DNA from: Collodictyon triciliatum
Taxonomy: Eukaryota
DNA length: 33,640 nucleotides
Direction of reading: 5' to 3'
Assembly (NCBI GenBank): GCA_043381765.1
Contig: JBHJMP010000271.1
Location: 1-33,640 of the forward strand
Within the stretch, counting starts at the first letter, position 1; every line of letters starts with the position of its first letter. A program made the position numbers and the translations under genes. Under the pieces are notes generated by a model. It was not told where the DNA came from. It searched no databases and saw only the letters and a list, made by a program, of their open reading frames with translations. Shown here piece by piece: positions 635 to 33,640 of the stretch.

Positions 635-2794
635 TCAGGTCGAGGTTATTTTAGATGTGAGATGCCCCAGTTTTTTGCTCATCTCAGTTAGTGTTGTCAG
701 AGCTTGTTGTTGGTATTCATACTTTGCACAGATTTGTTCCAAAGCCTCGTTTCGAAAGCAGCAATCGACGGCATGGTCAGGGCCACAAAGGTGACAAAAT
801 CTGTCAGTTCCATGTTCGATAGTTTCCTCCTTTAGCTGACTAATGCATACAGAGCAAAAGGAATGTCCACAAGGGAAACATGTCTCCGGTTGCTTCAAAT
901 TGTTCAGGCAAAACATGCACGTAATGTTAGCCTACAAATAAGAAAGAAGGGATGTGTGGTGGTGTGACGATTCCATGAGCTTAACATGTGTGAATATAGA
1001 TTTTTTTAAAATTAAAATAAACAGCACCGCTTCTTTTTTTTTTATGAAAAAAAAAAAAAAGAGATATTAAAATAAACGTGCGAGTATGTGTATTTGACCT
1101 GCATTGCTTCGTTTGAATGAATAAGTTTCGCTACAACACTTTTTAGTTCTTTTTCCGTCGATAAAATAATTTGTGCACGGTTTTGAGCCTCTGAACTGGT
1201 GGCAGTTTGTAAATCTTTTGAAAGAACTTTCAAAAAAATAACAATAAGAAACCCATAGAGCATCTCAATTTTCACACCTTTGAATTTTCTTTGGAATATG
1301 AATGGTAGTTACCAAATCGAAATAGAAAGGGGAAACAATATGGACGGGAATGAATGTAAACTTGCAACCTTGTATTTGTCTATCCTTTTCTAAGAGTGTC
1401 GAAGACATCTGGTCAGCCCTTAATTCTGCAGCTCGCAACCTCACATTTAAGTCTTGATGTAGTAATTCTAGCTTATCTACATCAGATGTCTTTTGGGATA
1501 TGATATTATCCTTATCGGATATAGTCTTCTGAGTCTGAGATAACTTCTGCTCTAAGGTTTTGATTTTCTCTAAATCGTTTACATAAAAAAAAAGTACTAA
1601 ATAACCGACCAAAGACAATACGATTGAATCAAAATGGAAAAAAAAGTGTGTCATAAAATATAATCACCCTATATGATGGAGGGAGATGGTAGTTTGGTTA
1701 TTTTTTGAAAGTATTCCTCCGTCATGTTTCATGGATATGGATTTCATAAAATATACCAGCACTCCTTTCAAACATGTCCCTACTAGACGAGCCTTCATCT
1801 TTGTTCCGATGAAATTTATCCAGCATTAGTACCAATATTTATGCAATGACCACAGTGCAAATAATATAACTCAGAATTAACCTTGAAGAGATTGTAATCG
1901 GTTGTGCGCTTCTTGTAATGCAAGCCTGATATTCTGATTATGCAACTCGAATTGTTTTCTTTCCTTCATTCATTCAAATACGAGAAAATTCATTAGAATA
2001 ATGAGATAAAAGAGAGGAAACTTTCGAGTCATGTACTCTTATTCCTCACTATCTAAAAATAATAATTGAGATAGTATACTTTTTCCAAGACACTTTCAAA
2101 TTCTGTACATTTTTCTGTAAGTTCCTGGTTTGCTCTGTCAGATTTTTTCAAGGACATTTCAAGTTCTCGAATTCTTTGCGTCAAGGAACTATTTGAAATT
2201 TACTCGAATTACAGGACCATCAGTAATTTTGAAAACATAAGGGAAGAAATACACAAATTGTCCATGAAATATAAAGTAATCATGATTACGATATTGAAGA
2301 AATGGATTTTTCCTTATCCAAACGTGCATCTGATTGCATTTGAGTCTGCATATTTTTGTAGTCACTATGATTTTTGCATATTACTTGGTTTGCTTTTATG
2401 AAAAATTAATAAAAGAATAGACAAATGAATAAATGCACATGTCTTCTTCCTTTAATCACAAAAAAAACAAAAGGCTTATTTCAAATAATTGAGCATTGAT
2501 ATACAACCTATACTCTGCTGAAATAGATCTCATTTTTGACTCGATGGATGTAATATTTGATGTCAAAGAAGTGATTTCTTTTTGCTGGACTCTGATTATT
2601 GGCGAAGAAGAAAGTATGTAAAGTATAATTATATCTTCACTTTGCAAATGGCATTATAACTGTACATATAAATTTTAGTTAAAATAAGTATCGATTTCAT
2701 TCTTACAGAATTTGCTTTTCAAAATTTGCTTTTACAATTTGATGTTCTTGGATTTGGATTAGGTAGGATTGAAGTTTTTCTCTGTTAAGATATT

Positions 2795-4815: not shown

Positions 4816-4897
4816 CGACACTGGCAGGATTTGAACCTGCGCGGGCGGAACCCAACAGATTTCGAGTCTGTCGCCTTAACCACTCGGCCACAGTGTC
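4816..4897 (-). tRNA. tRNA-Ser-CGA: tRNA-Ser (anticodon CGA), 82 nt, intronless
   Basis: Reverse complement GACACTG-TGGCCGAGTGGTTAAGGCG-ACAGA CT CGA AA TCTGT-long variable arm-GCAGGTTCAAATCCTGC-CAGTGTC-G. Acceptor stem pairs, A box and B box present, discriminator G, no encoded CCA, T-runs downstream. Confidence 0.97.
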
Positions 4898-5283: not shown

Positions 5284-8074
5284 TTAGGAAGACTTTTTTG
5301 GCAACGCTGGCTTTCGCTTCAGACGGAAGACTCGAATTTGGAGGATGGAGGTCATTCGGTCGACTACCGTCCACGAGGAGAGGAGGCAGACAAACAGGCC
5401 GAAAAACATTACCGAATGGATGATATACGCTGGATTCAGTGAGAAGGGCCTACATAAATTGGGGAGATTTTTACGGAGAAAGAAAAAAAAAAAAGAAGAA
5501 ATGGACCAAGTGCCCAAATGATATAATCTTATTTAGTTAATACAGAAAAAAAAAGTTCCCAATTAGACATAATAAGCTGACACATGATTGCTACAAAAGT
5601 TGGTATGTATAACAGGAAAAGGGCTATTTTGAATCGTGTCTTACGAAAAGAAGTTGAGAAGTGAAACAGTCAAAGCACACAAGACTGGGTGAACGACAGG
5701 ATACTTCTCGTGGCACAAATGCGATAGTATTAAGGAAGCCTGCAATAATAAAAATAAAAAATGGTGTAATTTATTGTCAAGAGGAAAATATGCTGACCGA
5801 AAGCGAATACATCTCGTAATTTCATGAACCAATTACAGATATAAATTATTTTTTTTAAGATGAATCATAACTCACAAGCATCTCCCAAAATGCAAATTCT
5901 ATAGCCCACATGACGACACGAGTGTCAGAGTAATTAAACTGATGGTGTTTTCAGAAAAAGGAGACTCCTTCAATAACAAATCATCTGGTCCTTCATCGTC
6001 AGTATGATTGACCAAAATGTTATATATTTTACTCACATATGGCGCACCAAGAATGACAGTAAGAAAAGACGCCACCGAAAATACCAAGAAAGTAGTAAGC
6101 GACAAAATAGGATGTGTCTTGCTTTCTTTTTCTTTAGAGCGGAGGTCATTGTAATGCTTCATGACAGACGATGTACTAATGTTTTATCGAATAGAGTAAA
6201 TATAATGCATCACATATTTTCAGGCAATATAGTAATCTAAACCACTAAGATTAAAAGAGCACATTAATTATCTTACTTGATTACAATTGTCACAAATGCC
6301 ATGACAAAACCAATAATCGGCATCATGTGTTTTAGGCGAATGTTGGCAAGAAATGGGGAAAGATTGCCTAGCTGCGATATGTGCATATTCCAAAACTGAT
6401 GTCCTAAGGTTTATTTTATGCGGTTGATTTTAGCTTTGATATTAGCTCTGATTTTAGTGGTTTTTTTGTCAGAGTTTTGTTATTCCTTTGTAAAGAAAGG
6501 TATTTGTAAGACAGTAATATAAGATAAACATAGAGAAAGAGGGGGGGAGAGAAAAGCGTATCCTAGAAAAATTATTATTGGGAGATTGCCTGCAAAAGCT
6601 GTTGTCAAGTGGATGGCGACGATGAGAAGAATTCCCTCACAAGGCCCATTAATTTGAGCTAGTATCATAGTTCCTGTGTGGTACCTGATGACATGAATTG
6701 ACAGGCTCATGGATTAATAATCACCGAATTTAGATTATTTATGAGATAGTATACATTTATAAGAGACGAAACGGAATGGACATACTCTTCCCATGTTGCA
6801 AAGAAGAATGGTAGGTAGCCACCAGCCCACAGAAGAAGGAATGACCAAAATCCAGCACCAAGTTGTAGAACAGACGCAGTGTTTAATCCTACGACCTGAA
6901 TAAATATTACAAACCAAAATTTGACGCCTTTATGTAAGTATGATTATTGCTTCATTTACATCAAATGCATGGAAATCAGTCAAGTTGGAACTTCAAACGC
7001 AGTGAATTAGGGTTTACAAAGAAATGGTAAACTCTTTGTGGATTATACGAATCGATAATACATACTGTAATGTTGAGACAATCACAGCCTTCATCGAGAT
7101 AATGAAATTTGAAAATGAAGAAATTAGGATGGTACATATTAAGAGAAACCACAAGAATTAACTATACAACCAAAGTCTAGGCATTTTTTTTTTTTTTTTT
7201 GCAAATAAAACATACAGTGGTCAAACATGTGTCCAAGTGGAGATGATGACCCTGTCTTTCGCGCTTGTCGCCCATCCAAGTTGTCAAATGTTTGGTAAAA
7301 GAAGACAGAAAATGCGCTGAACAAGATAATCCAGACAGGAAGATTTGAGTCCAGGTTCGGAGAGTACGACGCCACAATAAAATGCGAAGTAAGCAGCGGA
7401 ATCATTCCTATCACAGTGACCTATGCATCAATCCTCCTTAGAAAGAATCAAAAAAAAAAAACATGCGAATGTTAAATTGAATTACGATACTATGTGATGG
7501 TTTCATTTATCATTTTCCTTCATTCGATTCAAAATTAACAGTGCTATTTATGATTTTGGCGTGGACGTGATGATTGGTTTGATTGTTGGTTTCAATGTAG
7601 TACTTTGTACATAAAAAGGAAGCACAGAATGAAAGCTTACAAGATTTGGGCTGTATTTTTTTTTTTAAAAAAAAAAAAAGAAGCATAGGGCGTCCCAGCA
7701 GTTGGCAAACAATTATTTATATTTCAGTAAAAAAAAAAAAAAAGCATAGATATAGAATGCGTGATTATTTCGATTTAGTTATTGAATTGTTGTTATAAAT
7801 AGCTCGTATTGCTTTCAGGCCACCCACACTACTCTCCTTTATGATCTTTGTTTTGTTTTGGGCCATCAGCATAGCTATAAAATCAAATGTTGTCACAGAT
7901 TATATTGAAAAGGGACAAAAGAACATACGCCATCCACTCAGGCACAAAGCGCATGCACCAGTCCCAGTAGTGTCTGAGAAAGAGCCGATTGGAGATGGAG
8001 TTGTCCGTGCCACTGTACGCATAGTTCTTTAAAGCACTCGCGCGGGCTTTCCAGTCGTCGCTTGGGTCGATCAT
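5284..8074 (-). CDS. Choline/ethanolamine phosphotransferase (CEPT/EPT/AAPT family, CDP-alcohol phosphatidyltransferase), ~392 aa, 11 exons
   Basis: Exons 8074-7929, 7650-7641, 7420-7216, 7088-7066, 6895-6786, 6684-6590, 6403-6277, 6175-6037, 5938-5876, 5739-5645, 5449-5284 total 1179 nt in frame. Motifs [43 protein letters not shown] (CDP-alcohol motif), WEEYHTG..INGPCEG. An acceptor-like TTTCAG 3 nt before the ATG means an extra upstream exon is possible. Confidence 0.93.
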
Positions 8075-8109: not shown

Positions 8110-8405
8110 TCTTCTTTTTTATTTCTTTTTTATTTCTTTTTTATTCTTTTTATTTCTTTTTATTTCTTTTTATTCTTTTTATTTTTTTATTTCTTTTTTA
8201 TTTCTTTTTTATTTCTTTTTTATTTCTTTTTATTTCTTTTTTATTTCTTTTTTATTTCTTTTTTATTTCTTTTTTATTTCTTTTTTATTTCTTTTTTATT
8301 TTTTTTTTTTTTTTTTCTTTTTTATTTCTTTTTTATTTCTTTTTTATTTCTTTTTTATTTCTTTTTTATTTCTTTTTTATTTCTTTTTTATTTCTTTTTT
8401 ATTTT
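8110..8405. repeat. Degenerate 11-bp tandem repeat (TTTTTTATTTC)n
   Basis: About 300 bp of ttttttatttc units; source of the F/Y/L/I-rich spurious ORFs 8062-8466. Confidence 0.9.
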
Positions 8406-10221
8406 AGGTCCTAGTTTGCCCTGTAAAAAAAAACCCCAACCAAATAGATGCACAGAGGTTTTGTGATTCCCCTATTTTCATAGCTTTTTTTTTATTTTTT
8501 TATTTTTTTAGTTCTCGTGCATCAGGATCAACTCTTTGTTCATTTTTTCTATAAACAGCTGAAAGGCACAAGGAGACAGCCCAGCATCACTTGGTAGAAA
8601 ACATACTGCGGGTGGCAAAGTATGATTGTCTGAGCTGCGCAAAGCAATCTTTGTGTCGGCTCGTACTTCCAACCGGAGTGAAGGCTTGTCAGTTTGATGT
8701 TCCTCAGCGACAAAGAAGCAGGTAATATCATCATCTGATTTCGAGGGCGCAGGCTACGCGGCAAGATGGAGCTATCTGCGAGCTGTTTTTTTTCTTGACA
8801 TCCCAGCGAGGTACAAGGACTATACATCTTGGAGTGGAGATTGAGCGAGCGAGGGAGAATCTTGGTGATAACTTCGGTCGAATCTGACAGAGTTGATGAG
8901 TTTGCTTGGAAGGTCGTTGCGTGATGAGATTTGTTCTGTTTCAAACTAGATTGTGTGTGTGGATTCACATGATGTAGATTTATATCCTGCCGTGAAAAAA
9001 GTATGAAAAAAAAACTTCAGCAGAACACCCAAGAACAAAAAGAAAATAATTCAAAAGGCTCTAAACACAGCACTGGCGCGGATCAGGACCGAGCGAAAGT
9101 AGTACAGAAACAGCCCGCTGCTCGGCGGAACCTTCGGCACGTCCATGGAAGCAGCACAAAGCAAGAGCAGCCTCGAACATGCAAACGGTGTCTGAATCAA
9201 AGGATTAAATTTATATTCGCTATTCTGGAAATTACAATTTATGGTAGAATTATGATTACACATATGTCATGAACTTAATACCATTCAATTAAGAACACAT
9301 TATGTGTAAAATTATTGTAAGTGATAATCAATATCATCGATGCAACAGATTCTGCTTGTGTCTGCTTCACAACTACCCGAGAAGCTTCTAGATGTTGCCC
9401 AGCAAATAAGGAAATTTGTGGCCACATCTATGAAGTAATATGCATAATAATATTAGCACAATAATATATTTGCTGGAATTATTTGAACTCAAAATAACAT
9501 TTTTAAATTAATAATTATATTTTCCGTAATTAGATACCACCTGCCACCTCACCAGAGCACAACGCCACGCAACAACCTGTCACGCTGACACGCACAAGCG
9601 AACGCAACCAAAGCACAACCACCAAACACAAGAAGGATCACAACAAGGGCGAAGCAGGAGGCAAACCACACCGGAGGTCGAAAAGCAGTGCGAAGCCAAA
9701 AGCTGCTTCACTTTTGTTTGCTGGCTGGAAAGGATCAAACAATTTCCCACAGCCACAAACGAATCCACAGACACAAATGAATCCAGATCCAAAACATTAA
9801 TCAAGCCACAACTTCAACACAAGCGAGACTCGCGCCGAGCACAAGAAGGCCTCCCATATAGATGCCCTTGTGTACGGGTATATAGAAGCCCTTTGCCGCA
9901 TTTTCCTGAGGTTTTCCTCGGGTGGGTTGCACTCTCAATTGTCAAACATAAGCAGTTGGCTCCGTAATGCGCGAGGAGTTTGCAGGGGAAAGAAAACAAT
10001 CAAACATGCATCGTATTCACGCGAAACGACGTGATCGGCACGATCTGCCGAGGCCATTAGCATGAAGTATCTATATATACATAAGACAGAGTTTTAAACA
10101 AACAACCACAGGGATTTCCCAAGGCAACGCCACGAAGGAACATCTTCCTTTCAGCTCGCCTTAAGAAGACCGTCTCTTGCTTTCGTACCCAGTGCACCGC
10201 CTGCTGTGATCAGCCTGCGCC

Positions 10222-13200
10222 ATGAAGCGACGCAACTCTTCTGTAAGTGAAGAGCACATATGGATCACTTATTCAAGAGAAGCTGGACTTTCTTTTTCTC
10301 TGTAACGTGATTTTCTTGACTCAAAGAGCATTTACACTTTTTTTTAAATTGGCAACCTGTCCTTTTTAACCAAAAAGAAAAAAAAGTCTTCGATATTCCA
10401 AACAAACCCTTAACGCATGCATCTAAAGATGACCGAGCTGGATCAGCTCTTCCCACCCACCGCGCCAGTTGTGATCGATCAACTACCAAACTCTGAGGAG
10501 ATGAGTCCGTCCCAACTCATCAACTTTTCTGTCACCCTTGGAAACCGCCACCGCATCGATACAAAACCCGGTCGCCCACTTTTGCTCAAGCGACTCTTTG
10601 AGAATGCGACTATTCTTGAGCAAGCCTACAAAATGGTAGCTGACGCAGCACACGGCAATACTCGTTTGTCACACGCAGGTATCTGCCATAGAAAAGTTGT
10701 CTGTTGTATACATGTTTTTTTTTTTATCTTAAGCGTGCTATAGTATCCGCGAAAAACCATTTGGATACCTGATATAAAATTGCTTTAGAGGAATGGTTCA
10801 TCGACAATTTCTATCTCCTCTCCGAGAACATCAACAACGCCCGCAAGTTCTTTCCGCCTGGATATGACAAGAAAAGTGATCTTTTTTTTTTTTTAAATTT
10901 TAAGTGACTTACATCCAACCACAGTCTTCTGCTAAAGAGATAATTTATTTTTAACATTCATTTCTAAAACAAAAACAAAAACAAAAACAAAAAAACAGTG
11001 CCTCGCCTGCTCAATACCGACTCCAGCGGCCTTCCGCGCGTCTATGGCCTCGTCTTGGAACTGATTAGCTTGGTCAACTGCCATATTACTGAAAATAATG
11101 TAACCTATTTTGTCCAAGGTTACCAGTCCGTGTCTCCGTTGAAGATCGGTGAGCTGTGGGCTATCCCTATCATGCTTCGATTAGGGCTCCTCGAAAACAT
11201 TCGCTCTGTTGCCGACAAAATCATCAACATGAGAAAGGACCGAAACGTCGCAAACAGATGGGCTGACAAACTTCTCGAAGCGGCAGAGAAAAGTGGAAAA
11301 TCTGTGATTGAGGTTTTGTTTCAAATGTCCCAAAATCAGCTGAATATCAGCGATGCCTTCGTCATTCAAATCTCCCAACGCTTGCAAGGCTCTGACCCAC
11401 TCCTTTCCGTCATTACAACATGGCTGGAGCAACAACTCTCCACTCAAGGATTGGATATCGATGACGTCCATCGTTCTGAGCGCCATATGAACCAATTGCA
11501 CTTGGTTCGCCTTCGTAACTGCATCACTTCTCTTCGATTTGTGAATACGCACCAATGGGCAGATTTTGTAGAGACGCAGAGCTTAACCGAGTCTATCCTG
11601 CGCAAGGACCCAATGGGAATCTACACCCTGCAAGATTTCAGCACAAGAGATGCCTGCCGCCACGCAATCGAAGGCATTGCTGAGGATTCCAAAAAACCTG
11701 AGCAAGATATTGCCAACTTTGCTTTGGAACTGTCTACAAATGCCATCAAAGAATACCGAAAAATCATCAAGGAAATGAGCACAAAAGAGCCCTCTGCCAT
11801 GCTGCTTCATCGTAAGGGTTTTATTGGTTACTGGCTTATTGACCCAGAGGGCCAAATTGAATTGAGGCAAACTAAAAGCCTGAAAATACCTCTTGGTATT
11901 CAAATCACACGCCTTCTCAGTTCCGAAATTCGAATCGGCTTCTTTGTCTTATCTGTTGCGGTGATTTCCTTGCTTTTCACCGTCCTGGCACTCGGACTGA
12001 CTATGACGTCAGCTGGCGAGCAATTATCCTTTGGGCTTTTGTCCTCCCAGTTTGTTGGGAACGATTGGATTCCATTCCTCCTCTTTGTTCTGTGTCTTTT
12101 GGCTGTTGGAAGCCAGCTTGGCGTGGCACTTACAAATCTGTTTTGCGTTCGATGCGCTTCCCCGACTTTCATGCCCCGATTGGATTTCATCGAGACAGGA
12201 ATACCGGTTGAGCATCGCACGATTGTGGTTGTGCCTACGATGCTGACATCTACTGGGACTGGCAAAGAACTGGCTTCAGACCTACGAGCCCGCTTTCTGG
12301 TCAACAAAGACCCCAATATCTACTTCGCCTTGTTGACTGACTTCCCTGACGCAAAGACAGAGACATGCGCTACTGACGAGGCCATTCTTCAGGCGGCAGT
12401 CAAGGAAATCGACGAACTGAACCGTGTCTATCCAAATGATTCTGGTTCACCCTTTTTTATGCTCTTCCACCGACCAAGAAAGTATAACAGTGTTGACAAG
12501 GTCTGGATGGGCTATGAGCGAAAACGTGGAAAATTAAGCGACTTTAACCACTTGATGAGAGGCGGAGCCAAAGGTGCTTTCAGCAAAGTTATTGGCGATG
12601 TCCAGCTTCTCAAAACAATCCAATATGTTATCACTCTTGATACAGACACAATGTTGCCGTCTGACTCTGCAAAGAAGATGATTGGAACAGCTGCCCACAT
12701 ACTCAACCGACCTGTCTACGACCCTCGCATTCGCAAGGTGGCATGTGGTTACACCCTTTTGCAACCCCGCGTCTCATATGGTATCAGCAACATCTACAAA
12801 TCATACTACGGTTACTGGAACTCATTGGACAGCGGCGTTGACCCGTACACCAGGCAGGTTAGCGATGTCTATCAAGATGTGTTTGGAGAAGGGTCGTTCA
12901 TCGGTAAAGGAATCTACCACTTGGATGTCTTTGAAAGTGTTTTTGATGACCGATTCCCCGACAATCGAATCCTTTCTCACGACCTTATCGAGGGTTGCTA
13001 TTGCCGCTCAGGGTTCGCCTCCGACGTGGAGGTAATTGAAGAGTACCCTTCCAGTTACTTGACCGAAGTATCACGCCGCCATCGCTGGGTTCGTGGGGAC
13101 TGGCAAATTGCAGCATGGCTTCTTCCATTTGTTCCATCGCCTCATGGCTACACTCGCAATACATTGACCTACCTTTCCAGATGGAAGATTTTTGATAATC

Positions 13201-16200
13201 TTCGCCGGTCATTGGTGCCTAGTGGCATGCTTGGAATTCTCCTTTACAGTTGGTGCCATTCATCATTTTCTTCTGGGACTCCTCTGATTATGACTGTATT
13301 TTCTCTGTCATCGTACGTCATTCCTGGTGTGATAGAGATTCTTTTTGAGCTTACTCACAAGCAAGAGGATGTGGATATAGGATTGCACTTGAGCAACGTT
13401 TCATACTCTGTTTATCGTCGCTTATTACCTCTGGCGTTAGACATGATTTTCCTGCCCATCGACGCCTTCAATAACGTGGATGCTGCTGTTCGTTGCCTTA
13501 CACGCCTCTTCTTTACGCGCAAAAACCTTCTCGAATGGACAACCAGTACTGCTGCTGCCGCCTTGTTTACTGGAAACACTTTTCTTCGATTCTTACGCGT
13601 ACTCTGGTTTGGGCCGTTTGTTGCGGCGTTCACAGTTGCTATCCTGATGGGCCAATTGGTTATCCATGGAGTCAGCTTTAAATCTCTGATCGAAAATAGC
13701 GAATTTACCTTGGTGTCCATTAACTTCCTACAGGTTACATTGCTCCTTATCACCTGGGCTTCAAGTCCATTTATCGCTTGGTGGATTAGCAGCCCCATGG
13801 ACTCGCCCGAAAGTGGAATCTCTAAAGAAGACCGAGTCGAAAATCTGTCTGAAGAGCAAAAAGAATTCCTTCATGTGCTTGCTAGAAGAACTTGGCGTTT
13901 CTTTGAAGCTTTTGTTACTGAAGAGGATAACTGGCTTCCCATCGACAACTACCAAGAATTTCCCAAACCCATGTTTGCTCGTAGAACTAGCCCTACAAAC
14001 ATAGGCCTGGCCCTAATGGCAAACATTGGCGCCTGGGACTTTGGCTATGTCACCATGAAAACAGTCATAGAACGAACAGAACTTACCCTTAAGTCAATGT
14101 CCCAGCTGGAAAGGTTCAAAGGCCACTTTTATAACTGGTATGATACAAGCAACATGAAGCCTCTCCCACCAAAATATGTATCTGCAGTCGATTCAGGAAA
14201 CCTCTTTTTCACTTTGGTTATCCTGTCCACTTTTATCAAGGAAATGTCATCGGCCCGCCTAATACCTGGGCAGTTTGGAAAGGGATTATTGAATGGTAAT
14301 TTCCTTCTTTTGGACTACATCAATCGTCAGCTCCAAAAGAAACAAAAAAAGAACACAACCACCGAAGTTCATGACGATGCACATCCCGAAGAAAATGTTT
14401 CTCAGTTGCCACGCGAGTTAGATACACAGGCAGTGACCCCCATTCTTACGACCATTAAGTCGACCATCGAGAAGTTCCAGGTGCAGAATGCTTTGGACGT
14501 ATTTTTGGGCATTGAGTCACTATCTGAACCATGCAAACAACTCCTGCAAATATTGGAGCAGTTCAACGAGATTCAACGAGCAAAGGCTGAGAAACAAAAA
14601 GAGGAAATCATCTCGTCCGATGGAATTGTTGTTGTCCAACAAAGTACGGAAACGAAGGAGGGAGAAATGCTCTACTATATTCGAGCTCTTACCACCCAAT
14701 TGGAGGATACTAAGCAAGAAATAACCACCTACATGCCTTGGATACCCGTCCTGGCCACCATCAAGAGCGAGGGTAAGCAGAGCCCTGTGCCAGAGTCAAT
14801 TTTGAAGAAACTGTCCGACCCGAACTTGACAATCACATCTGTTTCGAGCCTGTGCGATGAAGTTATTGCTACATACGACAAAGAGTCTGGGACTGAGGGC
14901 GAAGATGAAAAAGAGCCTTCTAGCTTCTTATCTGCCATTCGCGAGGCAAAAGAAAATGCAAAGAAGAGACAATCTCAAATTCAGGAGCTTAGCGAGCTTT
15001 TGAATATCTTTATGGAGCAGGACTATACCTTTTTGTATAACAACTCCCGCAATCTCCTTTCTATAGGGTTCAATGTCGACCACAACCGAATGGACAATTC
15101 ATTTTACGATATGTTTTGTTCCGAAGCCCGCCTGTGTTCTTATGTGTGCGTGGCTAGGGGATTGTTGCCTGTGAAGCATTGGTTCTCCATGGGACGCCTT
15201 TTGACTGGAACAAAGACAAAGTCTGCTTTGCTTTCCTGGTCAGGCTCCATGTTTGAGTATCTGATGCCTCTTTTATTCATCCCCAGCATTCATGGAACTC
15301 TGCTGGACCAAACTTACAAATCTGTGGTTCGCCGCCAAATTGAATATGGACAGCAGAAGAAGGTCCCGTGGGGCGTTTCAGAGTCTGCGTATAACATGAT
15401 GGATGCTGGACTTGTCTACCAGTATGGACCATTTGGTGTGCCTGGACTTGGTCTCAAACGCGGTCTATCCAATGAACTTGTTATTGCCCCATATGCATCT
15501 TGTCTTGCGACTATGGTTGCCCCGGTGGAGGCTTGCAAAAATCTAATGCGCTTAACAAACATTGGAATGCAAGGAGCTTACGGCATGTATGAGAGTATTG
15601 ACTTTACTCAAAAGCGCCTGCGCGGTGCAATTACTGCACAACCTATCCAAAGCTTTTTCGTGCATCACGAAGGAATGTCTTTTTTGGCCCTGCTGTACAC
15701 TTTGCTCGACAAGCCGATGCATCGCCTCTTCTACAATACACCAGAGTTTGCTGCAAACGACCTGCTTCTGCAAGAAAAGATTCCAAAGATTCCTTACATC
15801 ATCAACCCCAACCAAAAAGAGCTCACCAGATGGAAAAACCCAGAAGGAAACGCTCCTTCGTGCAACAGAAAGTATCAAGGCCTGCAGGTTTCCATTGCAC
15901 CAGAAATTCACATGTTGTCCAATGGTAAATTCCATGTCATGATTACCGTGCACGGTTCCGGATATACAAACTACAAGGATTTGATGGTTTCTCGCTGGAG
16001 AGAAGACATCACAATGGACTGCTATGGTACCTACTTGTACGTGCGTGACCTCGACAACAAACGCTTCTGGACAGCAACATCTACGCCTGTTCTTGCGCCA
16101 CACAATTCAAACTACTCTGTCTTGTTCAGCCAAGGCAAAGCAGAATTCACGAGGGTTGAAGATGACATTGAGACCAAGACAACTGTGGTTGTTTCCCTGT

Positions 16201-19200
16201 ATGATTCTCTTGAAGTTCGGCGAGTTGAACTGAAGAATAACTCTAGCAAAGCCCGAACTATTGATTTGACAAGTTACAGTGAAATCATTTTGGGCAGTGC
16301 CCGCTCAGACGCCAGCCATCGTGCCTTTGCTAATCTTTTCATTCAGACCGAGGTGTTGACTGAACAAGACGCAATCCTTGCATATCGCAAGCCGCGCACA
16401 CACAAAGAAAAAACCATATATGCCTTCCACACTTGTTTTGTTCACCAAAAGAAGAAAACTTCTCAAGAGCCTCCGTCATTTGAGACGGACCGCAACATGT
16501 TTATTGGTCGCGGGTACTCTACACAATCGCCTCGCTCGATGTGTGAGGACGTGACGACGCTGAGCAATCCATCTGATGTTCATTACCCATTAGACCCTGT
16601 TTTTGCGGTCCGCCAGAAAGTCACCATCCCCGGCAACTCTTCTGTCTGTATTGACTTTATAACTGGTGTTGGGGAATCCAAAGAAGAAACACTCAAGCTG
16701 CTCCAAAAATCACGCCGAAAGAATTACACTTCGAGTGTTATCGAGTATTCGTGGATAAATAGTCAAAAACTCAACTTCAAGCTCGGCATATCTGAAATCG
16801 AAGCACAACTCTTCTGTCAACTTGGTGGCTGTATTTTATACTCTAATTCGAGATATCGTGCTTCTCCTCGTTTGATTGCAAAGAACCGCTCGAATCAAAG
16901 CGGTCTGTGGAGACTCGGCATATCTGGAGACCTTTGCATCATTTTGGTTCGCATAGGCGACGTCGCAAACATGGATTTAATTATCCAATGCCTGCAAGCC
17001 CATGCATACCTGCGAGCCAATGGCATCATTTGCGATGTTGTCATATGGAACGACGAGACAAGTTCATATCGCGATGAGCTCCATACATCGCTTTTATCAC
17101 TGATTGCAAACATGGGTGAAACATCCCAGCTCCTGCAGAAACCAGGCGGTGTTTTCCCGGTGAGAGGAGAGAGTATTTCCGAGCACGAAGGTATTCTTCT
17201 CTACAGCACTGCACGAATCGTCATATCAGACTATGGAGGTCGTTTAGTCGACCAGATTCACCGCGAGCCCAGAAAGGACAGAGAGTTGCCACCTCTTCTA
17301 AAAGTTGCCAACTTGCTCACCGAATCGAAGCCAACCACATTACCTCTGCCAAAGGTCCCTGTCGACCTTGAAAAGGAAAAGAAAGGTAGTGACATTATCG
17401 GCGGACTGGCGCCACTCGAGCAGAGAGACCTTGTTGAGGTGAACGAGTTTGGTGGATTTGACCAACGTCGAAAGGAATTTGTCATGATGCTGGAGGAAGG
17501 AAAATCCACACCGATGCCGTGGGCAAATGTATTGGCCAACGAGAGCTTTGGTTCTGTGGTCTCTGAGCGTGGCTCGGGTTACACTTGGTTTGAGAATGCA
17601 CACGAGTTCCGTTTGACTCCTTGGTCAAACGATGCGGTCACTGATGTCAGTGGAGAAGCCTTCTACATCCGTGATGAACAAACAGGCCAATACTGGTCTC
17701 CGCAACTGCAGCCCACGGTCGGAAAAACACCGTACGCAGTTCGTCATGGCTACGGTTATTCCGTCTGGGAGCATTCTGAGAACGGCATTCGCAGCGATAT
17801 GGTTGCTTTTGTCCCACCAAATGAATCTGTCAAGATTTTCCTTGTGCAACTCAAAAACCACAGCGGTCGGCCTCGCAAACTCACCGTGACTGGGTTTGTG
17901 GAATGGGCACTCGGAGAGATTCGAGACCGGACTAATTCTCACATAGTGACTGATGCTGAGTATGGCACATACATGAAGTCAATCATGGCTCGCAACCCAT
18001 ATCACCTCGACTTTGGCCTGCATGTGTGTTTCTTTGGTGTCATCGGCCACGACTGCACTATGACGGCCGATCGCTCTGAATTCATCGGATACAATCGTTC
18101 GCATGCATCTCCGGCCGGAATGGAGCGCACTCGGCTCTCAGGCACAGTCGGCAGTGCCTTGGACCCATGCGCTGCTATTATGGTGCCGGTGGAGCTTAAA
18201 GCCGAGTCTTCGATGGAGGTTGCGTTTATCCTGGGAGCATCGCATTCATCAAACAGTGCAAAAGACCTTGGCGAGCGCATTCGCAGCAACCTTATCGTGC
18301 ATCAGCTGCTAAAGAACACCAAGGCTTTCTGGCTGGACATTCTGCAATCCGTAACGATTGAGACGCCAGACAACTCGGTCAACCTTCTTGCAAATGGCTG
18401 GCTCCTGTACCAAGTCCTCAGCTCTCGCATCTTTGGCCGTTCAGGATTTTATCAATCATCGGGCGCCTTTGGATTCCGTGACCAGCTGCAAGACGCCATG
18501 TCTCTTGCTCACGCAGCCCCGCATCTGTTGCGTCGCCAAATCATGAGCTGCTGTGAACATCAGTTTGAAAAGGGTGATGTCCTCCACTGGTGGCATCAGC
18601 AAGGAAACCGCGGAACTCGCACTCGGATATCGGACGATTATCTTTTCTTGCCCCTGGCTGTCTACACCTATCTCGAAAACACAAACGATGTCCAGTTGCT
18701 GGATGCGATGTCGACGTATTGTACAGGGGTTGACGAGCCTGCTGAAGGTCAAGAGAGCGTCTTCAACCAGGCCCGAGGCTCGGAAGTGAGCGCAAGTGTG
18801 TACGACCACTGCAAGGCCGCCATCCGATACGGACTCAAGTATGGCCCTCACGGCCTTCCGCTGATGGGCTGTGGCGACTGGAATGATGGTATGAACGAAG
18901 TTGGGATTGAAGGCAAAGGCGAGTCTGTGTGGCTCGGCTTCTTCCTCTACTACGTCCTGGAGAAGTTTGCGTATGTGGCCCGCAAGTTCAAAGGAGACAC
19001 GGAGTTTGCCGAGTTGTGTGAGGAGCACATGGAGAAGGTTAAGGAGAGTCTGCACCAGCACTCCTGGGACGGCGAATGGTTCCTGCGCGCATTCTTTGAC
19101 AACGGCGAGCCACTCGGAAGCCACAAGAACGATGAGTGCCAGATTGACTGCCTGTCGCAATCGTGGGCCGTAATCAGCGGTGCCGTGGACAAGGAGCGAG

Positions 19201-19907
19201 CGCGGCAGGCGCTGTCGAGCGCAAACAGCCGCCTTGTGCGACGAGACCACAAGCTCATCCAGCTGTTTGACCCGCCATTTGAAAAGACAAAGATGGAGCC
19301 CGGCTACATCAAAGGGTACGCAAAGGGCGTCCGCGAGAACGGCGGGCAATACACACACGCGGCCGTGTGGCTGATCTGGGCGTATGCGGAGCAGCGCGAT
19401 GCACGGAGCGCTTGGGAGTTGCTGGACCTCATCAATCCAATCCATCACACGCGCACGGTGGACGAGCTGCAGCGCTACAAAGGAGAGCCCTATGCGATGG
19501 CGGCCGATGTCTACATGCTGCCCGGACACGAAGGCCGCGCGGGTTGGACGCTTTACACGGGCTCTGCTGGGTGGATGTATCGCTGCATCGTGCAGCGGCT
19601 CATCGGGCTTGAGCGGCAAGGAAACTGTCTTGTCTTGACGCCGCTTCCTCGGCCGGAGTGGAACGAGTTCAAGGTCCACTATCGCCACAAGCGCACGATG
19701 TATCACCTCCAGTTTCTGCGTCGGAAGGTCGGCAGCTTCAGCGGGTACAACATGAAGGAGATTGAGCGGACACTTGCGCAGCAGCAGCAGCAGCCCATGG
19801 AGAGGAAGATGACGATTGTGATTGATGATTTAGAGACCGTGGACGACAATCGCTTTGAGCTTGTCGATGATGGTCGCGACCACAATGTCAAGGTCCTCTT
19901 CTCGTAG
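10222..19907 (+). CDS. cgs: Cyclic beta-1,2-glucan synthase (Cgs/ChvB/NdvB type; GT84 + glucoamylase-like cyclisation domain + GH94 phosphorylase), ~3,080-3,090 aa, spliced
   Basis: Exons: putative 10222-10242 (MKRRNSS|GTAAGT), 10429-10678, 10789-10875, 10999-19907; total 9267 nt in frame. Splicing restores the conserved N-terminus SHAEEWFIDNFYLL..GYDKKMPRL..GLPRVY..GELWAIPIMLRL. GT84 motifs WMGYERKRGKL, VITLDTDT, YQDVFGEGSFIGKGIY, SHDLIEG, RRHRWVRGDWQ; about six TM segments; middle domain RTSPTNIGL, SEARL, SWSGSMFEYLMP, PWGVSESAY; GH94 YQSSGAFGFRDQLQD, GDWNDGMN, RENGGQYTHAA, YTGSAGW. The first 21-nt exon is less certain (alternative starts 10417/10429). Confidence 0.95.
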
Positions 19908-20677
19908 GATGGCGTCGGCTGTTAGTCTGTGTGTGGGCTCGACTTCAAAGAAGAAAAAAACGGAAAGAAAAAAAAAGTGTTTGATGTGTTCATGGGAATC
20001 ACCAATCGTTTTTTCCTTCTCTTTCACTTTCCGTCTCTCTCGTTTTCTTTCTCTTTCTCCTTCTTCCCAGGGTTCGAAAGCAGTGGAGCCAAGCAAACTC
20101 TCTCCCTTTCCCCTCTCACTATCGAAGGAATTAAACAAATAATAATAATAATAATAAAAAATAAAAATAAAAATAATGAATTCAGAGAAGCCAAGCCAGT
20201 CAGAAAAACACGTTCATTTCATATTAGGCAATTTAAGTTGCTTGCGTTACAGTTATTTATCTATTTAATACAACTACAATTATTCTAATTGTATTAATTT
20301 ATTTATTTATTTTTGGCTTTAGTTCAGCAGTTTATTGAGAGAAAACAGAACCAAGGAAACTGCCTTCGCCTTTAGGACAAAAATGAGCTGTGGACGAGAC
20401 AGTGGAAAACCTCGGATTGTGTGGCTGGAGTTTTTATGTTTTGGAAGGAAGGAAATGAAAAAGAAAAAGAAAATAGAAAGGAGAGAAGTGTTCTCACACA
20501 CAAACTATTCTACCCGAAGCGAATCAGCTCCAACGCGGTTTCTGGTTGTATTCGAGACTGACAGAAGAGCGGATAAAGTTGTCGGGTCGATTAAAGTACG
20601 CACATGGCAGTTACTTCTCAAATCGATTCCGACGAGTCCTTTCAACAATCCATCTCAGACAAGATTTACATCCTATT

Positions 20678-22017
20678 TCATTTCACAGGATGAGTCTTTT
20701 GAGGAGACAACGGGTCACTTTCCTTGCGTTTCTTGCTGGGCGACTCAAACAAAAAGCGATACATCGTTGTTTTCATGATATCAACGGAAGTGGCGCTTGA
20801 CCGTCCCCTGGTTTCGGAACCATGCGTAGCCGGCAGTGGACTTTGCTTAACCGGAGTATGGATACGCGTTTGTGGTTTTAGAAACATACGCTCTTGCTTG
20901 CTCGGGTTGCCTTTGGTGTGTGAAGTTCCAAGCTTGGATTCGACTTGTGCTGTTTGCCCTTGCTCCTTGGTTCTCGGTGCGATGGGCTGGGGCATGGATA
21001 AACGGACTATCTTTGGTGGGCGCTGGTTCTTGTGTTGCCTTCGCTTTGGAGTATCCTTTCGGATAAGCAACGAAGACTGCCTTGAGGCCTCCTATGTTAA
21101 CCATATTCACGTCAGTCTGAATGGGTAGTTTAAGGGGTATTTCTTTCGGGGTTTGGAGATGCGCTGCTCTTGGGTCTTGCGATGTGCAGGCTTGTCCGGC
21201 GTTGGCGGTGGATGGCTCGAGTGCGAGGATTCTGAAGAGGAACCGAGATTTCCTTCCATGTCATCGTCGCTGTCGCTGTATGCGCGTATCTGCTGTGAGC
21301 CTTGCAGACTCTGTTGTTGCCTGGCCTTGGCTTCCTTGACCCCGTTGCTGCTTGTCTACTTGGCGGGTGTATTCTTTTGTGGGGCTTTTGCTTTTCGTTC
21401 GTTGTTCGCAGCTGGCGGACGCTCTTTGAGGATGCGCTTTGGATACTTTTTTCCCATGACCGTAAACTTTGCAGGGAGCTTGTTCTTGTGACAAAGAAGC
21501 CTCACCACGGCCGTGTCTGTGAAGAAGCCTTTGTCCTCTTTGATCTCCACGTGGGTCGGTCTGAACGGCTTAACTCCTCACGAAGGAGTTGTGGCCACAC
21601 GTCCAGCGGTAGTTGACAGAGCATCACCGAGGTATCTGTTGGTCTACTTCTAGCGAAGCTGATCGTAATATCGATCAAACTTACCTGTTTCAGCTCCAGA
21701 AGCTTTCGGGCGTTTTCTGCAGTGCGGAAGGCAGTCATGCAAAGGCCTTCGCTGTCCGGTAAGCGCAATTGGATGGACTCTTCCTAAAGTTTGTTCGCTT
21801 TCAAGAAGGAGGCGAGCGCAACTGTAAGCCTGCGGGCCTTGTTCTTGTTTTAAACGACTTGCTCGACACCATGCAAAAATACTGTCCGCCCAGACAGACT
21901 TGCAGGCGGCTTCCTTGCACCAGTTTTCCTGGACTTACGTTCAACTCGGGGGTTTTCTGCACTAGTGTTTTGACCAAGCAACCCTACTTATATCTCATAT
22001 TCTGTTATGGTTGCCAT
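20678..22017 (-). mobile_element. Decayed ORF resembling the RRM-containing ORF1 (gag-like) of a non-LTR retrotransposon (L1/Tx1-like); no ORF2 seen
   Basis: Intronless, relatively GC-rich island. One frame 22017 to ~21555 broken by TAA 21990, TAA 21852, TAG 21786; one frameshift; second frame to 20678 broken by TAG 21358, TGA 21109, TAG 21094. Joined peptide AFRTAENARKLLELKQVSLIDITISF..TSVMLCQLPLDVWPQLLREELS../VEIKEDKGFFTDTAVVRL..KLPAKFTVMGK resembles the ORF1 RRM pattern by eye, followed by a K/S/P-rich tail. Confidence 0.5.
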
Positions 22018-22279: not shown

Positions 22280-25200
22280 TTAAAAGGGGAGAGGTTGTGA
22301 CTCCAAGAAATGTCTTAATAGGCACAACTCCTCTGTCACAAAAAAGTCTGAGTCTGCTATGACGTCCCTAAAGAAAGACAGAAAGACAGAAAGACAGAAA
22401 GACAGAAAGACAGAAAGACAGAAAGACAGAAAGACAGAAAGACAGAAAGACAGAAAGACAGAAAGACAGAAAGACNNNNNNNNNNNNNNNNNNNNNNNNN
22501 NNNNNNNNNNNNNNNNNNNNNNNNNNNNNNNNNNNNNNNNNNNNNNNNNNNNNNNNNNNNNNNNNNNNNNNNNNNAAACAAGACAAAAAACAAGACAAAA
22601 AACAAGACAAAAAACAAGACAAAAAACAAGACAAAAAACAAGACAAAAAACAAGACAAAAAACAAGACAAAAAACAAGACAAAACAAGACAAAACAAGAC
22701 AAAACAAGACAAGACAAAACAAGACAAGACAAGACAAAACAAAACAAGACAAGACAAAACAAAACAAAACAAAACAAAACAAAACAAAACAAAACAAAAC
22801 AAAACAAAACAAAAAGGCGGGAAAACGGAGGAAATACTTTCCAGATTCTTCTATTTGCATCAAAATAGCTGAGACGCGATCTCTATGAATTCTACGAACC
22901 AGAATTATGGAAATATTAGAACTTAGAATCAGATTTCAAGTATGTTATGTACATACGGCTGATTTCATTACTTTTTTTTTTCACATAGCTAACATTAAAA
23001 AAAAAAAAATCAACATCTTACGATGATATCTTTTCATTTTGAAATGTAGAGTGGATTAACGCGAGCAAGGCAGAGAGCCTGGCCACAGTGCCCAAAAGCT
23101 TCAATTCCTCACATAGCTCCATTCCAGAATATGCACAAACCAGTGCATCTTTTATTCTCAACTGACGAAAGAATATATCAGCAAGAGATTCGTATGAGCG
23201 AGCACAAATTAATTTTCTCATTTCGCTTGATTCATCATCCTCCAGGTGAACAAGGTTGCGATGAATAAAGGCTGATTCAGACTTTTGACTGCTCGGTGGG
23301 AGTAATGCACATCGTGAAGTTACACGGCCAACCACGACCATTTCATTAACTTGTGTTTGCCTCACTATTTGTTCCGGATGCACTTGATTTGTGGGCAGAG
23401 CTGCAGAACACATGGCTTTCTTAATCCCAAGCCATAAGTCACGTCTAAGAGCAGTAAATACGAAAAAAAATGAAGATAGTCTAAAAGTCGATGCTCTGGC
23501 ATTGGATATCTCCAAACATTCACCAAGATACCTAGCAATAATAAAATAGCATGGTTAATCCTCTGAGAATGCAAATTAATTCATTTTAAATGTGCCAACA
23601 TCTTCACCATCCTGTACAAAATTGTAAGGAAGAATAAAAAAAATATTCATTTTAGATATATTTTGATGAAGTTGTTTGAATTCACCTTGATGATAAGATA
23701 AAGTCTCCTCGAATTTTGTAGCATTCGCCGATGTTAAATCTACATATCACACTTAAAATTGTATCTTGAGGGGAGCTCTCTTGATTCAACAAACACTCTG
23801 CCTGCAGAAAACACTATAGTTTTCTCCGGTTAATATAATCGACTGATTTATTTATTTTAGAGATGTAATTTTGAGAAGATTTTGCTTTCAAAGTAAAGAA
23901 ATGTGAAAGACAATTTTTTATAATGTATTTTTTAAAATGAATTACTCTGATTGCTTCATCCAAATTATGTAAATTAAGAGCATCCTCCCCAGAAAGCATG
24001 TAGTATTCTATTTCATTATATTTTACAGAATGAATAAAGTTGTCATTCTTTCTTTTGGATGATATTGATTCAAAATATCATAATGGCCTAAATATGACTT
24101 CTTACTTATCGCCTTCTTCGTTTCTTTGCTGTTGAGAAAGTGGAAGGCAATCTCGTAGTATGGAAGCTTCTTTCCCTTACCCATCTTCTGTTCGAAATAT
24201 TCCCCGATTATTTTGTGCAATCTTTCCCTTTTCTGAGATAGTATTGTATTATCTATTTCGAATGGAATTTTTATCGTGATTTAGGCTCTTTCTATTCATC
24301 ATTCAACAACATCACCGTGATTTATATTCATTTTTAATAAACTGTAAACTTACACACAATATTCTTTACCACATTACTCGAAAATGCATATGTGTCTTTT
24401 GCTTGAGGGATAGGAACAATAAAGCTGGACGCTATCGCAGCATGAAAACACTCATCCACATCAATGCTACCAAGAACTAAATTATGCAGCACAGCTTCAA
24501 TGCATTCTTTATGAAATGTTGAGCCTGCCACGCTAGGTTATCCAATAAAAATTTTCAGTAATATGCCAAATGGCGGTTGGTATCCAGAGGTAGATTTCAC
24601 ACAATAGGATAGTCTTGTATAAACAATTGCCCACCTGCAAATACGTAAGATATGACTCTGGTCAAGAGACAGGTTATCTACTTTCTGACATACCTATATG
24701 CACAGACATTCAACTAGTGGATAGATAGAACCAAGCAATATTTTCATAATATTCATGATTGCTTCAAATGTATTTTTTCTTTTACTTTTATGTTAAAAAA
24801 AAGAGGGAAAGGGAAACCATACAAGTCCTTCTAAACTTCCAGGTAGCTGAAAATTAGAATCCGATAGGTTTTTGATGCTAACTTGTTTTTCATGGATAAC
24901 AACAATATTCGCATCAACAAGTGCGCGGCATAGTTCTGTTGTTAAGAAGCATATATATATATATAGACTAATTGAGACTTCCATTATAAACTAAAAAAAT
25001 AGGATAAAAACAGAATCCTTACAGTATCTAGGCAAAATTTGTCAAAATGATCTCATCAAGTAGACATAAGCTTTTTTTTTTCACACTATTATGATGCAAA
25101 TAAAATTACCGCGAATCATGTACGCATTCCCGCTTGTTTTTGAGTGAATCATACGAACGAGTTCCTCAGGTATTGAAATGCAGCCCAGCAGTCTCGTAAT

Positions 25201-33376: not shown

Positions 33377-33480
33377 CTTCCATAAAAAAAATGATGAACT
33401 TAGTCTGAGATTATGCCAATACACGGATAAAGAAGCGCAGAACATCACACGGTAACATTTTTTTTTTATAGGTAGAGTTA

Positions 33481-33640
33481 AACAAAACAAAACAAAACAA
33501 AACAAAACAAAACAAAACAAAACAAAACAAAACAAAACAAAACAAGACAAAAAACAAGACAAAAAACAAGACAAAAAACAAGACAAAAAACAAGACAAAA
33601 AACAAGACAAAAAACAAGACAAAAAACAAGACAAAAAACA
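33481..33640. repeat. Compound microsatellite (AAAAC)n then (AAAAAACAAGAC)n, runs off the window end
   Basis: Direct read; same units as 22576-22813. Confidence 0.95.

Follow-up and report, generated by a model that had tools for sequence, protein, structure and literature searches.

Evidence for an expressed, intron-containing nuclear gene of a bacterial-type synthase of cyclic beta-1,2-glucan in the freshwater protist Collodictyon triciliatum

Introduction

Contig JBHJMP010000271.1 of the Collodictyon triciliatum assembly GCA_043381765.1, analyzed here over its positions 1 to 33,640 (the window), carries on the plus strand an open reading frame (ORF) of 2969 codons (10998-19907 in the ORF list, before splicing) that resembles the synthases of cyclic beta-1,2-glucan (Cgs) found in bacteria. 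The question raised by this locus is whether the ORF is bacterial DNA that ended up in a eukaryotic assembly or part of a gene that resides in the nuclear genome of this protist. The evidence described below makes the second answer very probable: the locus appears to be an expressed, resident nuclear gene for a bacterial-type Cgs that was transferred from bacteria and gained its introns later.

We know of no beta-1,2-glucan synthesis in protists. Papers that join cyclic glucan synthase with horizontal gene transfer and eukaryotes have, so far as their titles and the openings of their abstracts tell, bacterial subjects only, and the sampled text of one article describes beta-1,2-glucans as made by bacteria (PMC12102758).

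Results and Discussion

Three introns separate the conserved N-terminus from the long ORF

Joining the four exons of the gene (Table 1) by script yields a single frame of 9267 nt that consists of 3088 codons and a TAG stop and contains no internal stops. The first-pass annotation of this DNA, which was made from the sequence alone, had placed three introns here, the second and the third in phase 1; re-reading and scripted splicing confirmed all the proposed GT..AG borders and both phases, and rebuilt exactly the junction peptide SHAEEWFIDNFYLLSENINNARKFFPPGYDKKMPRL that the annotation had derived. The GTG start of the unspliced ORF at 10998, taken in the same annotation for the acceptor G followed by TG, indeed reads this way. 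Retention of intron 1 or intron 3 would introduce three in-frame stops each, and retention of intron 2 a frameshift followed by a stop. The G+C content of introns 1, 2 and 3 is 0.34, 0.32 and 0.23, respectively, compared to 0.45-0.52 for the exons. All three introns are confined to the first 777 nt of the 9.7-kb transcription unit, the remaining 8.9 kb being intron-free. Branch-point-like candidates were noted by eye: introns 1 and 2 contain the CTRAY-like sequences CTTAAC and CTGAT, respectively, some 15-20 nt upstream of the AG. In intron 3, TCTAAA occurs roughly 30 nt upstream of the AG, and an (AAAACA) repeat occupies 10966-10993.

Splice joints were sought over positions 10000-11600 in the assembled contigs of four (X1 to X4) out of 17 public runs, each of which holds at most 0.20 of the window; X3 is a freshwater metatranscriptome, the labeling of X1 as RNA is a guess, and the bar for a joint was set at 31 letters on the shorter side. 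The joint 10242|10429 is present in X1 (shorter side of 71 letters) and in X3 (29 letters, below the bar), and the joint 10678|10789 in X1 (27), X2 (56) and X3 (89). Intron 3 is represented by the second X1 record, which matches 10787-10875 and then 11003-11137 with four record letters in between, that is, exactly 123 nt are removed; a repeat mask over 10879-11002 hid the row with this joint, which was derived from the coordinates of the pieces. The contigs of X4 cover exon 4 only. No contig of the four runs lies within an intron, which is informative for introns 1 and 2 only because contigs join across these, and the runs give no contig coverage at 10000-10107. Beyond 10457, one of the X3 contigs continues into a terminal tail that resembles an Illumina adapter, a library artefact that cuts its side of the intron 1 joint to 29 letters. 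The junctions that the first-pass annotation proposed to check in RNA are thus represented by joint rows, from two studies, for the first two introns and by the 123-nt removal in one contig for the third.

Among proteins, the ORF is matched best by a complete, 3092-aa ORF from a de novo transcriptome of Diphylleia rotans (P0003; species as named by the source), and by its best protein matches the organism is a relative of this species (Diphyllatea, CRuMs). The match to the spliced product extends over 3094 aligned columns with 81.7% identity and four gaps, and at the N-terminus 121 of the 125 residues are identical. These include the seven-codon leader MKRRNSS, which had been predicted from the removal of intron 1 and which is thus found both in the relative's transcript ORF and, as a joint, in RNA contigs. 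The pattern of introns is more than a chance arrangement because the joined product equals the transcript ORF of a relative and RNA contigs carry the joints. Three spliceosomal GT..AG introns are removed from the RNA of this gene.

Table 1. Features of the Collodictyon triciliatum window. Residue numbers refer to the spliced protein.
Feature	Positions	Strand	Remarks
CAG acceptor-like site	10109..10111	+	X3 mRNA contigs switch here from a leader foreign to the window to window sequence
5' untranslated region	10112..10221	+	110 nt, G+C 0.56, ATG count 0; X3 contigs start at 10110, X1 at 10172
Exon 1, coding part	10222..10242	+	MKRRNSS with RRNxS motif
Intron 1	10243..10428	+	186 nt, GTAAGT..TAAAG, phase 0
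Exon 2	10429..10678	+	250 nt
Intron 2	10679..10788	+	110 nt, GTATCT..TTTAG, phase 1
Exon 3	10789..10875	+	87 nt, codes for conserved EWxxDNFY...PPGY block
Intron 3	10876..10998	+	123 nt, GTGATC..AACAG, phase 1
Exon 4	10999..19907	+	8909 nt, without introns, terminal TAG 19905-19907
GT84 glycosyltransferase core	12639..13088	+	D667, D669 (DxD), Y736, D781, RRHRW 812-816
GH189-type cyclization domain glutamates	15123..15383	+	E1495, E1581, aligned to E1300, E1386
Pfam Glycoamylase match	15177-15689	+	
GH94 phosphorylase part (supersandwich and catalytic)	17511..19607	+	D2614, D2749; Pfam PF06165/PF17167, E 8e-153 and 3e-106
CDP-alcohol phosphotransferase gene, multi-exon, eukaryotic	5287..8062	-	Divergent from Cgs gene; Pfam PF01066 on one exon
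tRNA-Ser, anticodon CGA	4816-4897	-	82 nt; only Rfam match in the window
C3HC4 RING-finger, exon-sized ORF	638-931	-	Pfam E 3.5e-7

Homologous proteins align across the intron sites

We compared the N-termini of 12 homologs (4 from the eukaryotic clade described below and 8 bacterial) with the window using tblastn. All 12 align with exon 3 and exon 4, with a gap of 41 codons exactly over intron 3, and all 12 align with exon 2, in another frame; with each of the 8 bacterial queries, the match to exon 2 stops at the residue that directly precedes the match to exon 3. The spliced N-terminus is accordingly collinear with all 8 bacterial proteins across the intron sites, the alignment that the first-pass annotation had called for. 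Introns 2 and 3 interrupt conserved blocks that are free of gaps in the multiple alignment, the former before EWxxDNFY and the latter before (L/M)PxL. The Cgs motif that the annotation had quoted, EWLLDNFY..LP.GY..LPRL, is borne out by the bacterial rows, which show EWLLDNFY...LPKGYSRELP(R/K)L. Neither exon 2 nor exon 3 taken alone has a Pfam match.

A side observation concerns P0005, a member of the clade from the Logan data that is 53% identical to the Collodictyon protein and whose predicted sequence begins (MPTLENTE...) exactly at the residue homologous to the codon split by intron 3. The unspliced ORF of the window starts in the same way, and the coincidence is a hint that the relative has an intron at this position as well.

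The ATG at 10222 is the first after the leader junction described below; it is in frame once the introns are spliced and has a G at -3. Given the 110-nt 5' untranslated region without an ATG, 10222 is the first start. It is conceivable that translation starts instead at the ATG with which exon 2 opens (10429) and that exon 1 is merely 5' untranslated, in which case the gene would still be integrated and spliced; in favor of this alternative, the leader is only seven codons long and has no counterpart in the bacterial proteins. We consider it quite improbable, however: the stretch 10112-10221 offers no earlier ATG, MKRRNSS is identical in Diphylleia rotans, and the RRNxS motif recurs at the aligned position of P0006 and of the Naegleria proteins P0008 and P0124, but not in the bacterial rows of the multiple alignment. 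Altogether, 5 of the 7 clade rows compared carry the motif; of the other two, one is cut at the 5' end and one lacks it. That RRNxS is a kinase site is a speculative possibility.

The catalytic residues of cyclic glucan synthases are conserved

Pfam searches with the ORF detected two GH94 supersandwich stretches, the GH94 catalytic domain and a Glycoamylase stretch. The Agrobacterium Cgs structures (PDB 8rf9, 8rf0) were matched at an E-value of 0 and 1657 bits, and the isolated cyclization domain (8wy1) at 1e-111, or at 1.5e-60 when the cyclase region alone was used as the query. In the sampled text of the source articles, the functional residues of the Agrobacterium enzyme are given as D624, D626 and D739 of the transferase, D2393 and D2528 of the phosphorylase and the self-glucosylated primer site Y694 (PMC10901819), the catalytic glutamates of the cyclase as E1300 and E1386 (PMC11842490), and the GT84 motif as [QR]xxRW (PMC7185993). 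We located their counterparts by piecewise alignments to chain 8rf9_A, in which adding 19 to the chain index reproduces the published numbers (verified on four residues including E1300, E1386 and D2528), and checked the codons of the conserved residues in the window.

All 8 published catalytic or priming residues are conserved, as is the [QR]xxRW motif. In the transferase, D667 and D669 correspond to D624 and D626 (TLDTDT vs TLDADT) and D781 to D739 (SHDLIEG vs SHDLLEG), the RRHRW at 812-816 is aligned to RQHRW of the Agrobacterium enzyme, and the priming tyrosine Y694 is represented by Y736 (VDPY vs IDPY). In the cyclase, E1495 and E1581 correspond to E1300 and E1386 (aligned pairs SEARL/SECRL and VSES/ISEA), and in the phosphorylase D2614 and D2749 correspond to D2393 and D2528, within the identical motifs FRDQLQD and GDWNDG. 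A crude hydropathy scan shows hydrophobic segments at 425-503 and 882-1040 that flank the transferase domain. The linker between the glycosyltransferase and the cyclase (about residues 1100-1320) could not be aligned to the solved enzyme, the best stretch starting at residue 1324.

The protein is thus in the same length class as the bacterial Cgs, with the same domain order and a common N-terminal EWLLDNFY...LPxGY...LPxL block. Unlike the bacterial genes, the protist gene is nuclear, contains three spliceosomal introns and is probably expressed as an mRNA with a spliced leader; its product has an RRNxS leader exon found in eukaryotes only, shows about 40% identity to the nearest bacterial proteins and is known by prediction, and no exporter gene lies beside it among the 42 flanking ORFs scanned.

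Both the layout and the chemistry of a functional Cgs are thus present, and from the domain architecture and the residues listed above we infer that the product is a cyclic beta-1,2-glucan. The predicted protein would comprise an N-terminal domain, a GT84 transferase flanked by hydrophobic segments, a GH189-type cyclase and a C-terminal GH94 phosphorylase. By analogy with the Agrobacterium enzyme, it would glucosylate its own tyrosine Y736, extend a beta-1,2 chain from UDP-glucose, trim the chain by phosphorolysis and close it into a ring. A role of the product in osmotic adaptation in fresh water, as in bacteria, is a speculation by analogy.

The Cgs fold could have been kept for another product or role, such as a linear beta-1,2-glucan, a polymer of the cyst or cell coat, or mainly the phosphorolytic breakdown of prey glucans. 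This alternative draws on the lack of chemical evidence of cyclic glucan in these protists, on the linker that does not align to the solved enzyme, and on the literature, in which we found no paper that joins 2-glucan with Naegleria (in open-access main texts, a scope that also applies to the literature searches mentioned below). It is unlikely, though not negligible, given that every one of the 8 residues needed for priming, elongation, cyclization and the control of length is retained, in the same domain order; a cyclic glucan remains the predicted product.

The gene belongs to a eukaryotic clade among bacterial sequences

A full scan of 1.84 billion representatives returned 11,581 clusters at E <= 0.001. 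The closest sequences come from D. rotans, Naegleria fowleri, N. lovaniensis, Willaertia magna, a cluster with Acrasis kona fragments, and four metagenome or Logan proteins; identity to N. fowleri over the first 500 residues is 43%. Viral contigs, when scanned, yielded a single weak match (27% over 88 residues) and thus nothing to suggest a viral source. We built three trees with 68 rows each, namely a FastTree tree from 2829 columns and quick IQ-TREE trees from 475 transferase columns and 727 GH94 columns; in the latter two, P0137 and the partial P0136 were swapped for full-length cluster mates.

In all three trees, the same 12 rows, which include the window, Diphylleia, Naegleria, Willaertia and the Acrasis-like cluster along with others, lie on one side of a branch with a long stem among bacterial sequences, with a support of 100 in FastTree and an SH-aLRT of 100 in both IQ-TREE trees. 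The clade adjoins P0154, P0161 and P0182 in the full-length FastTree tree and in the GH94 tree, and the order within it is poorly resolved. We infer from these trees that the gene belongs to an older eukaryotic clade common to Diphyllatea and Heterolobosea rather than being a private acquisition. Under the simplest reading, to which the trees point, there was one old, not recent, transfer from bacteria to eukaryotes, followed by descent or by eukaryote-to-eukaryote transfer; the gene would have entered eukaryotes once and would now be present in both groups. If the gene entered eukaryotes from bacteria in this way, its introns must have been gained after the transfer.

Diphyllatea and Heterolobosea are distant in the eukaryote tree, and patchy occurrence often reflects repeated transfers, so that a recent, independent bacterial acquisition by Diphyllatea, unrelated to the heterolobosean genes, could be envisaged. 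This scenario is very improbable because a branch with maximal support separates all 12 rows from the remaining ones whether the full length, the transferase part or the GH94 part is analyzed, and the rows of the clade share N-terminal features found in eukaryotes only. A single old acquisition is therefore preferred.

The heterolobosean homologs, from N. fowleri, N. lovaniensis, W. magna and A. kona, are uncharacterized members of the same clade with the same architecture. The Naegleria proteins also share RRNxS near the N-terminus, although Heterolobosea represent a different eukaryotic supergroup. The N. fowleri and N. lovaniensis entries are denoted 'hypothetical protein', with the UniRef name 'N,N'-diacetylchitobiose phosphorylase', and Naegleria is unmentioned in the sampled part of the literature on GH94 and GT84.

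Intron gain after transfer is a well-known pattern for protist genes of bacterial origin. Like other such genes, the Collodictyon gene is of bacterial descent, has a composition close to that of the host, contains spliceosomal introns and lies next to host genes, but with 9.3 kb of coding sequence it is of unusual length, and all three of its introns are crowded into the first 777 nt.

The genomic neighborhood is eukaryotic

Divergently from the Cgs gene, the window encodes a CDP-alcohol phosphotransferase, in which eight strong segments and one weak segment are collinear with a 393-aa transcript ORF of Diphylleia rotans (P0132). The gene has at least eight exons, the better of which are 71-88% identical to P0132. 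Its exons are similar in composition to the Cgs coding sequence: the G+C content and the G+C content at third codon positions (GC3) are 0.456 and 0.514 for the neighbor and 0.487 and 0.543 for Cgs. The flanks are AT-rich (31-36% G+C), with microsatellites and homopolymer runs. Among the 42 flanking ORFs, Pfam gave only two clear matches, the phosphotransferase and a RING finger, the latter probably being part of another eukaryotic gene; a third ORF had only sub-threshold matches, on a poly-A stretch.

Several further observations concern the composition and repeats of the window. At 8112-8404, within the 2-kb stretch that separates the two divergent genes, there are about 28 tandem copies of the 11-nt T-rich unit TTCTTTTTTAT, and other long repeat arrays are located at 22372-22814 and 33480-33640. 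The last quarter of the Cgs coding sequence (window region 18000-20000) has a G+C content of 0.55 and a GC3 of 0.65, against 0.45-0.48 elsewhere. Downstream, 21001-22000 has a G+C content of 0.51 and several overlapping ORFs without a Pfam match; this region (20300-22000) may represent an unrecognized gene.

The most obvious alternative to a resident gene is bacterial contamination or a chimeric join, with a bacterial long ORF and upstream pieces that align by chance. The ORF of 2969 amino acids without an intron, its 38-41% identity to thousands of bacterial proteins and its G+C content of 0.45-0.57, higher than that of the flanks, would all fit this explanation. What such an ORF lacks, however, is the bacterial-type N-terminus of about 120 residues, which is restored by the three splices whose joints occur in RNA contigs; moreover, the closest relatives are eukaryotic (D. 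rotans at 82-84%, followed by Naegleria, Willaertia and the Acrasis-like sequences, in a clade on a long stem), and the exons of the neighboring gene have the same composition. The eukaryotic neighbor, the matching coding composition and the splicing evidence exclude contamination or chimerism for practical purposes, leaving it a vanishingly small probability. The conclusion of the first-pass annotation, integration rather than contamination, is upheld by the spliced introns together with a multi-exon eukaryotic gene on the same DNA.

A putative spliced leader on the Cgs mRNA

Two short X3 contigs match 10110-10150 without a difference and carry 20 additional letters upstream. The window contains no copy of this 20-mer, even when up to 3 mismatches are allowed. 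When metagenome contigs were scanned for exact copies, 69 matches were obtained, 65 of which lie 0-14 nt from a contig end. In all 65, the 20-mer is followed by AG and then by one of 61 distinct sequences, an ATG being reached after 0-80 nt; the invariant AG accounts for the overlap of the X3 match at 10110-10111. The same 14 letters precede the 20-mer in the 13 contigs that reach that far (with one difference in one of them), so that the common leader is at least 36 nt long, as in positions 1-36 of contig L014: AACCGATCAAGTAGCTAACACTACCTAATCAAAGAG. The other 4 of the 69 matches were rejected as leaders, being an internal repeat with other flanks.

By eye, the leader-bearing contigs encode ordinary eukaryotic proteins, including Hsp70/BiP-like, Sec61-like and Rab-GDI-like ones. 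Their mean G+C content is 0.60, richer than that of the Cgs gene, and neither their peptides nor their DNA match the window; the 65 contigs may belong to another species. No gene for a spliced-leader (SL) RNA was found in these data, that is, there is no leader copy in the window and no GT after the leader among the 69 metagenome matches, and Rfam detected nothing in two leader-bearing loci. To our knowledge, the leader sequence matches none of the known spliced leaders. In the literature, we found no paper on spliced leaders in Diphyllatea and none that contains the letters of this leader.

These observations indicate that the mRNA is probably formed by spliced-leader trans-splicing at 10111|10112, a junction that comes from one gene and two short contigs of a single run (X3). 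The case resembles trans-splicing in euglenozoans, dinoflagellates, nematodes and rotifers in that a common leader is present on 61 mRNAs and is followed by short 5' untranslated regions, and in that it is joined at an AG acceptor in the one gene for which genomic DNA is available; unlike in the known systems, an SL RNA gene was not found in the window and the 69 matches.

Points that temper the conclusions

Several findings weigh against a resident Cgs gene of old bacterial descent as reconstructed here. The support for splicing comes from assembled contigs rather than reads, and demonstrates that spliced forms exist without giving their abundance, the efficiency of splicing or the transcript ends. 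The intron 1 joint exceeds 31 letters on both sides only in X1, the run with the guessed label, with 29 letters in X3, and the intron 3 joint comes from the piece coordinates of a single contig with the joint row masked. The matches of exon 2 to bacterial proteins are individually weak (27-42% identity, E-values of 1e-4 to 0.08). The trees are unrooted, were built by quick methods from the best-scoring bacterial matches only and include no alphaproteobacterial reference row; 7 of the 12 clade rows are called eukaryotic by tree position alone, and P0137, considered as a thirteenth eukaryotic row, was rejected as bacterial after it fell among bacteria in the FastTree tree and its cluster proved to lie on a contig of 4.04 Mb. 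With respect to function, NCBIfam assigned no family to the 2969-aa ORF, no ChvA/NdvA-type exporter is found among the 42 flanking ORFs, and we know of no product chemistry for any eukaryotic member.

Implications

Two broader propositions are put forward together and tentatively, as somewhat less probable than their negation: that cyclic beta-1,2-glucans, so far regarded as a bacterial polymer, are produced by free-living protists of fresh water and soil, and that, with a Cgs mRNA that begins in this organism with a spliced leader of 36 nt or more, Diphyllatea (CRuMs) are a new trans-splicing lineage. The spliced leader, if true, is relevant to the question of how many times trans-splicing evolved among eukaryotes. 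For glycobiology, a eukaryotic clade that is catalytically intact by sequence makes beta-1,2-glucan synthesis in protists directly testable, with osmotic adaptation, cysts and interactions as potential roles. For evolution, the presence of the same gene in CRuMs and Heterolobosea poses the choice between ancient acquisition and eukaryote-to-eukaryote transfer, and the gene offers dated intron gains in a once intron-free sequence.

Protist assemblies of uncultured species are routinely stripped of bacterial-looking DNA. A 9-kb bacterial-type ORF is an obvious victim of such curation, yet here it is a resident, spliced gene. The Collodictyon gene adds a new eukaryotic member to a known enzyme family and illustrates with textbook quality how a transferred gene has turned into a gene of the host.

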